64,000 nt of DNA from Octopus vulgaris. Its lineage: Eukaryota. Location of the stretch: positions 70,680,001 to 70,744,000 of the forward strand of contig OX597824.1 in NCBI GenBank assembly GCA_951406725.2, read 5' to 3'. This document shows, piece by piece, positions 5,597 through 64,000 of the stretch. The first letter of the stretch is position 1; each line of letters opens with the position of its first letter. The notes under the pieces were generated by a model. The model saw only the letters and a list, made by a program, of their open reading frames with translations, was not told where the DNA came from and searched no databases. The position numbers and the translations under genes were made by a program.

Positions 5597-5640
<44 letters not shown>

Positions 5641-8116
5641 GTTATTATTGTTGTTGTTGTTATTCAGCATCAGTCTTTCAATAGTAAAATGCTCATCTGT
5701 CATGTAGGCACCCCAGGTTCATTTCCCAGCTGATGCAAGTCACTTATGGCAGCAAGCTGGTGGAATTGTTGGCACATTGGACAAAATGTTTAGCAGCTTT
5801 TCTTCTAGCTTTACTTCCTGAGTTCAAATTCCACCAAGGCTGACTTTGCCTTTCAGCATTTTGGGATCAATAAAAATAAGTACCAGTTGAGTCCTGGGGT
5901 CTATGTAATTGACTAGACTCTCCTTCTAAAATTTGGAAAATAACAGAAAGGATTATTGTTATTATCATTTAGGCAGTGAACTGGTAGAATTGTTAGGGCA
6001 TTTCTTCTGAGTTCTAATTCTGCTGAGGTCAGCTTCACTTTTTGCCCCCATGGGCTCGTTAAAATAAGTACCAGTCAGGTACTGAAGTTGATGTAATCAA
6101 CAAATCCTTCCCTTCACACCCCCAATTTCTGGCCTTGTGCCAACATTTAAAATGCTTATTACCTCATATTATCAATATTTGGTAAACTTGATGGCACAGC
6201 TACCCAAGACATTATTGAAATTGTAGCAATTTGAGGAATCATTATGAGCAAAAACATTAATCAACTGGTAGCAGAAATGGTACAAATCCAGGTTAAATGT
6301 TTCCTAATGTTTAGATTTATCTAATTTATTTAATCGCCTCCACATTCTAGGTTTACATTGGCCATGGAATTCTGGAATTCTAGCTGTCACTAGAAACTAC
6401 AGATTTTTATCTGTAGTGGAGAAGTAGGGCTGGTAGAAAAAATGGTGATTCACTTAAAAAAAGTATCATCTACAACAGCAAAATTCCAAGCCAAAAAAGG
6501 ACTTCCTAAACTAAACACTAACAGCTTTTTATAATGGCTCACTTTTGATGCTGGTGGTGGGGATTGGGGTTGTAAATTTCACCCATGTCCCACATGTATA
6601 CCAAAACAGTGTGGCCTAGTGGTTAGGGTGCTGCAATGCTCATTATCATAACATTGTGGTTTCGATTCCTGGATTGGGCAGTAAGTTCTGTTCTTGTTGA
6701 GCAAAACAATTTGTTTCATGCTGCTTCACCCCCACCGCCCCCACCTGTAAATGATTTCCTGCAATAGCTGGGAAGTTATCCTTGCAACAGACTGGCATCC
6801 TATTCAGTGGGGGGTGTTTTAACCTCAATCATTTATATGCCATAAGGCTTATGACAAACCTAAGTCTAAGTCACACCTACATCATATCTTACATGTAATA
6901 ATATCTCTGTGTTTCGGCCCATCATCAACATAATCACATCATTGAAACAAGCAGACCTGCACTGAAGTAAGGTAAACATAAGTAAAGAAGATTTATAAAT
7001 GCAGCACAATTATGTTCTCTTAAGTTTACCTTGACAAAGGGCCAACTTGTCTAAAGTATCAATATTATTTACTTTTACTTCAGTGTAGTAATGCGGACTT
7101 CTTTTTATGGGTAAATTAAAGGTGTTTTAACCATGACATTGTGTATCTAGAACTACATTGCTGCATTATGCCATGTGCTGGTTTTGGGGGGTTTTTCTTT
7201 GTTTTTGTTTTTTTTTTTGGGGGGGGGCTTTTTTTAAAGACTATTCACACTGAAACTCCTTTCATTGTTGTTAATGTTTAGTCCCTTAACATTCCTGATT
7301 AATCAGAGATAGGATCGATGGTGTTTCACCCATCACTATCCATCAGTATTTCGGACACAGTCTATCAATGTCAAAGGCTACATAATCCAGTGTGTCCTTC
7401 CTTTTCTTAGACAATACAGTGTGATTAGAAAGATTTGGTTGCTATTGCTATCAGAAAAACAACCACATGAATGATCACTCTGCTTTTTGATGATACCAGT
7501 GATTGTGAGATTATGCGGGTGTTTCTATGAGAAGTGTGAAAGCACATGGCTTGTTGGTTAGGATATTCAGTTCATGATGGTAAGATCATGAGTTCAATTC
7601 CTGGTGGCACATTGTGTCTTTAAGCAAGGCACTTTATTTCACATTGCCCCAGTCGACTCAGCTGCAGAACTGAGTAAAATAGAACCCCTTCTGTCATGAA
7701 TGGCCATGGGATTGCATGTAGAAAGTTCCCCTCCGAGGCACAAGTCCAGACATGGTTGTTTATGGAAGACCAGCAGTCATTCATGCATACCAGACCCATC
7801 TCTCTATGCCACTGATGTTATCTAAGGGAAAGGCAAAAGATCCTATACAGTTTGGCACCAGTGACATCACAATTCATTTCAGCAGCTCAGTGAACTGGAG
7901 CAACATAAAATAAAGTGTCTTGCTCAAGAAAGCAACACACAGCCCGATCCAGGAATCAAACTCATTACGTCATGATTGTGATCTCTACACTCTAACCACT
8001 GAACCATGCACCATGTACAGAAATGAGTAGTACCTGTATTTCAAAGAGCCAACCTTGTCATATTCTGTTTCACATTGAATCTCCCTCAGAACTACATTAA
8101 GGGTATACATATCTGT

Positions 8117-8533
8117 AAGGCGGAGAGCTGGCAGAAACGTTAGCATGCCAGGCGAAATGCTTAGCGGTATTTATTCTGCTGCTACGTTTTGAGTTCAAAT
8201 TCTGCTGAGGTCGACTTTGCCTTTCATCCTTTCGGGGTCGATTAAATAAGTACCAGTTACTCACTGGGGTCGAAATAATCGACTTAATCCATTTGTCTGT
8301 CCTTATTTGTCCTCTCTGTGTTTAGCCCCTTGCGGGTAGTAAAGAAATAGGTATTTCGTCTGCCGTTACGTTCTGAGTTCAAATTCCGCCGAGGTCAACT
8401 TTGCCTTTCATCCTTTCGGGGTCGATTAAATAAGTACCAGTTACTCACTGGGGTCGATATAATCGACTTAATCCGTTTGTCTGTCCTTATTTGTCCTCTC
8501 TGTGTTTAGCCCCTTGTGGGTAGTAAAGAAATA
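8117..8533 (+). mobile_element. tRNA-derived SINE family B, partial tandem dimer with 15-bp TSD; many other copies (12590, 13365, 16814, 17306, 22500-24850, 37485, 41400(-), 42106, 50892, 54849(-))
   Basis: gagctggcagaa..gttagc / gagttcaaattcc head, gcctttcatcctttcggggtcgataaa core; TSD ggtatacat(a/g)tctgt at 8102-8116 and 8534-8548. Confidence 0.9.
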
Positions 8534-8734
8534 GGTATACATGTCTGTGAAGTGCTCAACCGCCTGCATGTTAATCCCACGAGTAGGCTGTTCTGTTGAT
8601 CAGATCATCTGTAACACTTGTCATCATAACCGATGGAGCACCAGTTAGTGTGAGAAGTGTATATGGTAATGTGAAGAAGTCAAACCTTTCCTCCATTTAT
8701 ACTAATTCTTTCTCTCTTTCTCTTTATATTTCAG

Positions 8735-27300: not shown

Positions 27301-28658
27301 TTGAATAGTTGTGCTCCTCGAACCAACAGACTTGACTCTCTATGGTGTAAGATTCAAAAAGAAAGTATGTTGTTGACAGTGACTTCAAAGTTTCAGCCAG
27401 CTAAGATATCATCGGACTTTGGTGCATTGAAGTTAATCAAGCCTTTATAAAGCCAGGCAAGAGTAACTCTAATGCACCACAGTCTGACGATGGCTTGACT
27501 GACTGAAATTTCAAAGTCACTGTCGACAGTATTCTTGTATAACAATAAATTTGTACTCTGCAAAAGTATAGAGTAACCCATCAGATTGATGTCAAATTGG
27601 TTTTATTAGAACTGAAGATTAAAAAAAAATAAATCAACACACACACACATACCTATTTCCTTACACTTCTCCAAATTGAGACTCATCATTGCCTACGCCT
27701 CCATCCCTGCTCCTGATCCACTACTTTACTTCCACCTTCATGTCTGTCTCCTTTCACATCTCATGAACCTGCTACCCACCCAGCCAACCTTTATTTCCTG
27801 TTTCTATTCTCTCTTTATCCCCTATCTCGTGTGTTGAAAGTATGTCTTGGTTCCCTATCTCCATAATTGTTTCTCCTTTTCCAGCTTGTGCAGGAAGACA
27901 CCTACCTGTACTTGTCACTCTGTTATACTTTAGACTCTCAAATTATGACACAAAGCCATCTCCCTCAGTACTGCAAACACATACTCTATTCTGTCAAAGC
28001 ATCTTGTCTTGCCAGTTACTTGCCGACCTCAATAGCAACACTGCTGTGAAGAAAGCACCCAGTACCCTCTATAAAATGATTAGGATTAGGAAGGACATCT
28101 AGCTGTAGAAGCCTTGCCAAAGCAGACACTGAAGACCAAAGCAGGCCTCAGGCTAAGCAGATCCTGATGAAACCATCCGACCCATACCAGCTTGGAATGT
28201 TAACTAGCAAGTATTTTAAGTTTTAGATATTAAGGAAATACCTAGCTCTTAACAAAAGAATTAATTGAAAACTTTTTTTTTTAATTGAGTACTTAGTAGC
28301 ATCACTTGTGTTTTGGTTGCTCTGTTCGGTTCACACATTCTTGCACACAGCACTCTGTGCCACTGAAATTAATAATTTGGTGAAGGGCGTCATAGTATCT
28401 AAGGGAGGTAATTTCTCGAAGAGTCGTTTTCTCTTGGACATTACTGATAATAATTAACTTATTGTCTCAGGTGCACTACAACTCGTCGGAAAAGGTTAAA
28501 AAAAAGGATATAAATCAGCCATATATGTCAAGTAAATAAAGATAGGTATGAAAGCAACACTTATATACAGTTCTATATTTAAGAGATGAGGAATTATGTA
28601 CATTATTTACATTTTTTTTACATTCGATGGATATTTGTCCTCATCTTGTTTGTTATTA

Positions 28659-28702
28659 ACACAACGTTTCGGCTGATATACCCTCCAGCCTTCTTCGGGT
28701 GT
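28659..28702 (-). ncRNA. Hammerhead motif (left arm), core CCGAAGA (U4C variant)
   Basis: Minus strand: ACAC CCGAAGA a GGCTG gagggtatat CAGCC GAAA CGTT GTGT. Confidence 0.55.
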
Positions 28703-29017
28703 TCGGGTGTCTTGGGGGAATTTCGAACCTGGGTTCTCATTCTTAAGATATTTTTCGATGTTTTTGTTATTATTATTATTATTAGTGTTCAGTTCACTGC
28801 TTGGAATCGAACTCAGAATCTTGGGGTTAGTAGCCCGCGCTCTTAATCACTACGCCATATGCCTGTGGGTATATGGCGTAGTGATTAAGAGCATGGGCTA
28901 CTAACCCCAAGATTCCGAGTTCAATTCCAGGCAGTGACCAGAACACTAACAATAATAATAATAACAACATCGAAAAATACCTTAGGAATGAGAACCCAGG
29001 TTCGAAATTTCCCCAAG

Positions 29018-29061
29018 ACAACTGAGGAAGGCTGAAGGGTATATCAGCCGAAACGTTGTGT
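29018..29061 (+). ncRNA. Minimal type I hammerhead ribozyme motif (right arm)
   Basis: CTGAGGA (29022-29028) a GGCTG-loop-CAGCC GAAA CGTT GTGT; palindromic stem III aacgtt. Confidence 0.65.
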
Positions 29062-29889
29062 TAACAAACAAGATGAGGACAAATATCCATCGAATGTAAA
29101 AAAATGTAAATAATGTACAAGGCTTATATGTTCATTACTTGGAATAAAATGAACAAAAGTGAGCAGTAAAAGAGTTGTAAGGGTGCGTTAGTGATATCAG
29201 GAGTAAGCATTGAGGAATTTTGGAAAGTATGGGGTTTTAGAAAGATGCAGTGTCCTGACAGCTAACAATTGATGCGGGTAGTTTATTCCATGTGTCAACA
29301 ATTCTGAGCATGAAAAAGTTTTTCAAAAGTCTTGGGTGCTGTGCTGTTTTATTAAAGCAGCGAGCTTGCAGAATCGTTAGCATGCTGGGCAAAATGTTTA
29401 GTGAAATTTAATCCTTCTTTATGTTCTGACTTTAGATCCCACCGAGGTTCATTTTGCCTTTTGGGATCTGTAAGATAAGTACCAGTCATGCACTGGGATC
29501 GATGTAATTGACTTCCCCCTTTCCCTGGAATTTCTGGCCTTGTACAAAAATTTGAAACAAAGATATTAACGGATGCCTTGTACTTTACTATATTGGTTAA
29601 TGGTGTCACATCTGCACAAACTATATTTTAGATTAAGTTGTTGGTACAAATTGGACGAAAATTAACCAAGAAGAAAATAGCTTCCTTCGAGAAATTCTGA
29701 CATATTTGTAATAACATCAACACTTTGATATTTGAACAAGTAATGGAAGAAAGAATTGATGGAACAATGGTGAAAATATCTTGTGATACTTGTTTACATT
29801 CCTTTGCACAGAGTTTAAAAGCCTGCACATCACAGGGTAGTTGGTTTGAGGCAGCTCAGACCCACTCCAGGTGAATGCCACCGTAAGTA

Positions 29890-63779: not shown

Positions 63780-64000
63780 TTCTGTGAACACATTACGAAT
63801 TACCCATGTCAGCATATTCATAAACAAAAATACAAGCCAAACTTCAGCAAAAGAGAATGGGCTAAGCTGAACAGATTAAAAGAGGATAAAACAATCACAA
63901 TCAAAGAGACGGTCAAAGGGCGTGCAATAGTCTTAATGGACACGGTATATTATATAACCGTAGTACTATCTTGTGAAAGGTAGGAAATTCCAGTTTGCTG
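63780..64000 (+). pseudogene. Penelope-like ORF fragment upstream of the RT domain, runs off the window
   Basis: KREWAKLNRLKEDKTITIKETVKGRAIVLMD resembles the L.....I.IK.ADKG...V.MD PLE motif. Confidence 0.55.

Follow-up and report, generated by a model that had tools for sequence, protein, structure and literature searches.

Head-to-head terminal repeats of a Penelope-like retroelement with a putatively tRNA-derived head in Octopus vulgaris

A palindrome in Octopus vulgaris DNA is almost certainly a pair of terminal repeats (pLTRs) from a class of retroelements that is already known, Penelope-like elements (PLEs). It lies in a stretch of 64,000 nucleotides (contig OX597824.1, positions 70,680,001 to 70,744,000), which was analysed as a whole and is called the window here. 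Each arm of the palindrome is the pLTR of an autonomous PLE encoding a reverse transcriptase (RT) and a GIY-YIG nuclease, the head of the repeat follows the open reading frame (ORF), and the arms are partly coding, because the ORF starts in the arm and runs through the hammerhead. The probable explanation, in our judgement, is that the arms are head-to-head pLTR fragments of a Penelope/Poseidon-type element whose tRNA-derived head, with its A and B boxes, is likely to be a Pol III start site. The EN+ PLE class and the minimal hammerhead are already known, and what appears to be new is the tRNA-derived head in a PLE pLTR. No tRNA-headed or Pol III PLE was found in the papers searched.

The left arm (28597-28863, minus strand) and the right arm (28868-29119, plus strand) are inverted, lie 4 nt apart and are 88.4% identical over 267 columns; the preliminary description had likewise given arms of ~260 bp with almost no spacer. 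Read outward, each arm opens with a tRNA-like head and continues through an (AAT)n linker and a middle segment to a minimal hammerhead and then an A-rich end. The A box, linker and B box reported earlier are present. The left head covers 28792-28864 on the minus strand (A box 28847-28857, B box 28803-28812) and the right head, which is Arg-like, covers 28867-28939 on the plus strand (A box 28874-28884, B box 28919-28928). The linkers are at 28765-28784 (minus) and 28948-28969 (plus), and an in-frame ATG of the PLE ORF is present at 28738-28740 (minus) and 28988-28990 (plus). The arms are unequal at their outer ends. The pLTR-only copy on the left (28597-28864, minus strand) is followed by a 29-nt extension (28568-28596, minus strand), which codes for the N-terminus of the ORF and corresponds to the PLE tail, reaching a second RT start site; the pLTR-only copy on the right (28867-29119, plus strand) ends at the first RT start site and has no tail. 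No target-site duplication is evident at the window copy, a decayed copy and, in the scheme proposed below, a dead end.

Upstream, four of the first 30 loci extend into common sequence that translates as the C-terminus of a GIY-YIG nuclease. The parent was rebuilt by walking upstream, where the RT motifs and then the PLE N-terminus were found. Of 30 loci picked by their GIY-YIG DNA, 27 have the head ~30 nt past the stop codon. Head and ribozyme are linked elsewhere in the genome too, with the hammerhead downstream as well in 19 of these 30. Among 30 loci picked by RT the head is downstream in 17. The repeat is also found directly before the ORF, in direct orientation, in 8 of 30 loci picked by the N-terminus, one of them with its head. 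The consensus ORF, built from 133 fragments, is open for 794 codons, or for 838 from the ATG inside the arm (window 28988). Its frame crosses the hammerhead and is aligned there with the protein P0001, to which it is 57% identical over residues 11-834, hammerhead-encoded stretch included. Splicing of a short GT-AG intron within the tail, which would connect a downstream ATG with the ORF, was considered and dropped because the unspliced frame is conserved in P0001; none of the 15 joints listed (of 56) in the RNA reads is a skip of this kind.

The RVT_1 domain matches the consensus ORF with an E-value of 2.4e-10, and the similarity to PLE-type proteins is full-length. The element has the features of EN+ PLEs, namely a single ORF with an RT plus, at the C-terminus, a GIY-YIG domain with CCHH-type residues (nuclease region read by eye), a pLTR at the 3' end and also before the ORF in partial tandems, and 5'-truncated inverted copies with a tail of 30-40 nt on one end. 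It appears to be of the Penelope/Poseidon type, judged by its domain order, its short linker lacking a zinc finger (by eye) and its 37% identity to an anole protein. The earlier proposal that the palindrome is mobilised by PLE RT/GIY-YIG was right, the arms belonging to the PLE itself, and the suggested comparison with pLTRs of intact PLEs places the arm as the pLTR of a coding PLE in the same genome.

The nearest described relative in organisation is Poseidon_Ac of Anolis, which is alike in having a single ORF with an N-terminal domain, an RT and, C-terminally, a GIY-YIG domain, a pLTR that overlaps the start of the ORF, a hammerhead in the ORF start, RT start sites inside the ORF, two 3' ends a 30-40-nt tail apart, and both tandem and inverted copies (PMC11167929). 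The octopus pLTR differs in that it begins with a tRNA-derived A/B-box head at which 5' ends pile up, and no such head is mentioned in the available text of PMC11167929.

A protein search for other PLE families in the genome returned only the family of this palindrome (30/30 loci, 70-90% identity). PLE remnants had been called common in the window, which was not borne out, as 48 PLE proteins gave a single weak region (63813-63953, E ~6e-4). This region resembles the pre-RT part of other PLE proteins and looks like a decayed remnant of a different family. Internal deletions are unusually many in copies of the palindrome's own family (L062-L090, L241-L280), and may be RT jumps or later decay. 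Two loci (L012 and L017) have the same flanks on both sides: the copy lies in another decayed RT-like element, which was duplicated afterwards.

The derivation of the head from a tRNA is statistically supported by profile comparison. A profile made from nine tRNA genes of the same genome and one tRNA-like stretch from a metagenome locus (L325) matches the heads of the two arms with E-values of 0.0011 and 0.0081, and that of the family consensus with 6.8e-5, in 313 kb. The closest two of 30 genomic tRNA genes, a sample of few isotypes, are both tRNA-Arg (49/73 and 46/73 identities), in agreement with the resemblance to tRNA-Arg noted before. A tRNA-derived head with A and B boxes is a feature of SINE2 elements, and here it is present in a PLE pLTR. 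Both window arms have GA in place of the consensus GG in the A box. The head has no cloverleaf fold (z +1.5) and its acceptor stem is gone too. ARAGORN found no tRNA at the palindrome, and the Rfam tRNA and hammerhead models, suggested as a check, detected neither in the window, giving only hairpin and microsatellite artefacts in the window and the element. Among dead copies the A box (4.8%) and the B box (5.5%) show no extra conservation against their neighbours (~5%).

Two further loci bear on tRNA-like heads. One (L054:1340-1420, oriented) is a chimera in which the tRNA-like head of another repeat is fused in register to the PLE head. The other, on a metagenome contig (L322), is an intact tandem PLE with 38% protein identity, in which the order of the element is that of the octopus PLE and the ORF likewise crosses the hammerhead. 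At 2820-2910, and again at 5611-5700, it carries a stretch resembling an A box and a B box followed by AATAATAAT, between the stop codon and the hammerhead. The signal of this stretch is weak, with a profile E-value of 0.99, no Rfam tRNA match and a pattern found 4 times in 620 kb, and each unit contains two TTTT. As a weak lead, the locus raises the prospect that PLEs may have captured tRNA heads more than once.

The hammerhead is a standard PLE motif. In its minimal layout, stem II (GGCTG/CAGCC), GAAA and the palindromic AACGTT are present, and the family consensus has the core, G10.1-C11.1 in stem II, stem I and a palindromic stem III, so at the level of the family the assignment to the PLE-type minimal type I hammerhead stands. 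For the two arms themselves it stands in part: the layout and stems are there, but each window hammerhead has one damaging change and neither is fully intact. The right hammerhead (29018-29062, plus strand) keeps its core (CUGAGGA ... GAAAC GUU) but has ACAA for ACAC, which breaks the first stem I pair, beside the predicted cut between 29057 and 29058. The left hammerhead (28658-28702, minus strand; predicted cut between 28663 and 28662) keeps ACAC and intact stems I and II, but its core is mutated to CCGAAGA (U4C). A family consensus lacking the core or stem covariation had been named as evidence against the earlier proposal; core and stems are conserved in it, and related PLEs have the same core with differently paired stem II sequences behind their ORFs. 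This variety is not independent covariation, because the scan demanded pairing.

The minimal type I hammerheads known from PLE pLTRs in metazoans are alike in their CUGANGA core, the extra nucleotide before stem II, G10.1-C11.1, the long stem II, the stem I of 4-5 bp and the palindromic 15.2-16.2 (PMC4209133). As ribozymes the octopus motifs are no different from these, apart from a GUU cut site and the damage to both window copies. The minimal hammerhead acts as a dimer, and metazoan PLE hammerheads have been described in pairs on opposite strands, 100-700 bp apart (PMC4209133). A ribozyme dimer between the two window arms was rejected, because the hammerheads sit on opposite strands and cannot dimerise in one transcript. 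Self-cleavage is predicted at the GUU site. No pile-up of genomic 5' ends was seen at the cut site among the partner arms, and three RNA runs contain no discrete read ends at the GTT|GTGT site where small or circular RNAs had been predicted to end; processing of the element by its own ribozyme, as proposed before, leaves neither trace. The hammerhead is a dimer-type motif and is probably needless for these insertions.

A 33-nt stretch of the hammerhead has 2017 exact matches genome-wide (2.8 Gb) and its reversed control has none. Only 3 of 91 copies that were not chosen by this pattern match it exactly, and on that basis we estimate ~60,000 copies of the PLE family, with a range of roughly 20,000-300,000. 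The suggested copy-number check thus yields tens of thousands of copies, single or head-to-head. Short tRNA-headed copies are far more numerous than coding copies. Non-CpG divergence from the consensus is 4.4% for 87 short copies and 6.6% for 60 ORF-linked copies. The same polymorphisms are found at like frequencies in 94 short copies starting at the head and 71 ORF-linked copies; position 64, for example, is 43/32 in the short and 32/24 in the ORF-linked set, and positions 78, 154 and 223 do not differ. The few significant differences reflect a short set nearer the consensus, which follows from how that set was chosen. In these sets the short copies show no private lineage, and do not form the separate non-autonomous lineage that characterises SINE2 elements. 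The palindrome had been taken for a separate non-coding parasite, a view that is not supported, as the head belongs to a coding PLE, the arm encodes protein from the ATG at 28988 on and the variants are shared.

Short hammerhead-bearing repeats are also known as the Schistosoma hammerhead repeats and the animal non-LTR retrozymes (PMC6765202, PMC7229834, bioRxiv 10.64898/2026.07.22.740005). In these sources the Schistosoma repeats appear to be transcribed by Pol III, and PLE pLTRs are put forward as the origin of retrozymes. They are described there as non-autonomous tandem repeats with double cleavage, whereas the octopus repeat is the pLTR of a coding element and is dispersed and mostly head-to-head. 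Retrozymes consist of head-to-tail tandem monomers with a hammerhead and no ORF; the octopus copies are single or head-to-head and have a coding parent.

The 5' ends were mapped in 154 copies at 89 loci. These were drawn, in order, from the first 100 matches to the pattern on one contig (C1), with 6 of the listed matches left out and paired matches sharing one locus; all loci picked by the hammerhead lie in the first half of this contig. Ends falling within the (AAT)n tract were excluded because they are ambiguous, and frequent internal deletions can distort 5'-end calls. Of 64 copies that reach the interval from -17 to +5 of the head, 47 end there. This is a rate of 3.2% per nt, ~10 times background, as five other intervals have rates of 0.17-0.38%. 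The main peak is at -6 (11 copies), with a lesser one at +1 (6 copies of 154). Transcription from a type 2 Pol III promoter is expected to start ~13 nt before the A box, which here is near -6.

In the window the two 5' ends meet in a self-complementary 12-nt junction (28860-28871). The head-to-head junction recurs genome-wide (459 exact matches to a degenerate pattern) and the read-through junction is found 496 times. The parent has a self-complementary 12-mer at -6 to +5 that can be lengthened into a bulged hairpin at -12. Fold-back at the longer hairpin was seen in 0 of 41 read-through junctions (40 loci), so the end of a template explains the stop better than the strength of a hairpin, and a template end near -6 fits best. 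Many copies (L047, L049, L051, L056, L060 and others) seem to begin in a long (AAT)n tract that is preceded by unrelated DNA, which suggests that the linker served to join them to (AAT)n microsatellites of the host.

The 3' ends are bimodal, at ~+235-253 and +274-277, without and with the tail. Bimodal ends of this kind are a known PLE signature (PMC8557442), and the tail is described in PMC8557442 and PMC11167929. Among 40 junction loci both arms are complete in 16; exactly one tail is present in 15 of these 16, and two tails in none. Of the 16 loci with a readable centre and tail, 11 carry the tail on the non-colinear arm and 5 carry it on the colinear one, counts to which internal deletions add noise. 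Simple snap-back of a single cDNA was ruled out by these counts. A snap-back copy cannot exceed the length of its template, and hence two cDNAs fit better; the joining of two cDNAs is preferred because there is one tail per palindrome, mostly on the non-colinear arm, and a single tail uncoupled from the orientation of the junction points to cDNAs joined at their 3' ends. Homogenisation of the arms after insertion was also rejected (private differences 8.0% within palindromes, 8.7% between loci), although shared variants are somewhat higher (0.54% vs 0.15%). The arms agree at 33/38 diagnostic positions, which are linked sites; this weakly suggests that both arms come from one source locus.

How inverted PLE insertions arise is called still undefined in PMC8557442. 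For the anole Poseidon, internal RT starts with extension of both strands have been reported in vitro, the ribozyme is described as protein-assisted and dispensable for insertion, and the template requires ORF sequence past the RT start sites (PMC11167929). In the scheme that we propose, a transcript would start in an upstream pLTR, ~6 nt ahead of its head, and run into the ORF. The protein of the element would nick both target strands and prime reverse transcription at two internal sites, one including the tail and one leaving it out, and both cDNAs would run off the 5' end of the RNA after ~250-280 nt. Their self-complementary 12-nt 3' ends could then anneal and give a palindrome with almost no spacer. 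The palindrome is a product of insertion and not a divergent promoter by design. The fixed 5' end offers a clean natural test of how inverted PLE insertions form.

The sense consensus of 2.66 kb contains zero TTTT, compared with a mean of 2.8 in synonymous shuffles of the ORF (P 0.032). In 49 clusters of related PLE segments there is no depletion (264 TTTT observed, 263 expected, segments under 900 nt dropped), and zero TTTT also occurs in 1 of 41 such clusters with an expectation of 2 or more. The absence of TTTT is modest support for Pol III, and concerns one family only. RNA was sampled as ~6% of each of three runs (X22-X24) from a related or same-label organism, with L138:960-1560 as reference. 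The repeat attracted 9272, 7447 and 6878 reads, or ~0.06-0.07% of reads. They are equal in both orientations, which fits passive transcription or an unstranded library, and there is no spot where many start or end, on a reference that begins 3' of the predicted start. Depth drops ~100-fold past the tail. The junction on the ORF side appears in loose read ends, and the head is therefore joined to its parent in the RNA-source organism as well. Taken from the DNA, the head is likely to be a Pol III start site. That the whole ~3 kb autonomous PLE is read by Pol III from a tRNA-derived pLTR promoter, purged of TTTT and with an uncapped RNA translated through the hammerhead, seems doubtful to us.

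The same parent could carry the head passively, as an old insertion of a SINE or tRNA in its 3' UTR, with Pol II reading the element, RT stalling at the GC-rich head and the 12-mer trapping cDNAs. The 12-mer is indeed the GC-richest of 10 short palindromic sites along the consensus, the A and B boxes are no better conserved than their surroundings, the RNA gives no sign of a start within the reach of its reference, and the Penelope promoter of D. virilis is LINE-like, internal and TATA-less with a DPE (PMC2377424). Against this, no switch occurs at the longer hairpin 6 nt on, a comparable 5-bp palindrome at +120 has no 5'-end hot spot, TTTT is depleted, and the stop sits where a type 2 Pol III start is expected. 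We regard the passive head as rather unlikely.

The arms might instead belong to an independent SINE-like parasite with a tRNA head and no coding function, whose own copies would be templates for Pol III, whose RNA its ribozyme would cut and which would be mobilised in trans. Such a parasite would account for the great excess of short copies, some of which, with A and B boxes and no terminator, could be re-transcribed, and the SINE-like hammerhead repeats of Schistosoma are a precedent (PMC6765202). It is nevertheless highly improbable and already largely refuted, given a head that is part of a coding element, diagnostic variants common to short and ORF-linked copies, an ORF start inside the arms and the want of a pile-up at the cut site; moreover, the ORF sequence beyond the RT starts that the anole template needs (PMC11167929) is absent from the short copies. 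If the tRNA-like head of a long Pol II transcript were cut by an RNase P-like activity, instead of marking a promoter, 5' ends would fall exactly at +1, where the minor peak lies, which a Pol III start at -6 leaves unaccounted for. With the main peak at -6 and both acceptor stem and cloverleaf lost, we give such processing very little credence.

The nearest analogy to a tRNA-headed PLE is the TRIMp3 elements (Cassandra, Helenus and Ajax), which have a Pol III promoter derived from a small RNA in their terminal repeat, plausibly through insertion of a SINE (PMC10886601). These are non-autonomous LTR elements, whose autonomous partners are argued in the same source to need Pol II, whereas the octopus tRNA head is in the autonomous PLE itself. 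Should the head prove to be a functional Pol III promoter, the element would be an autonomous retroelement that uses a promoter of the SINE type, something deemed unlikely for autonomous LTR elements (PMC10886601). It would also be a route for PLEs to seed thousands of SINE-like repeats, which annotation pipelines could file as SINEs.

Other repeats occur in the window. A second imperfect inverted repeat (27363-27536), with 82-nt arms that are 76% complementary and a 10-nt spacer, is unrelated to the PLE palindrome. Three tRNA-derived SINEs of octopus were reportedly described by Ohshima and Okada in 1994. High-copy interspersed repeats, each with >10 copies in the window, are spread across it (for example 1802-2416, 8111-8540 and 29349-29543), and some of these look tRNA-headed and are presumably octopus SINEs.
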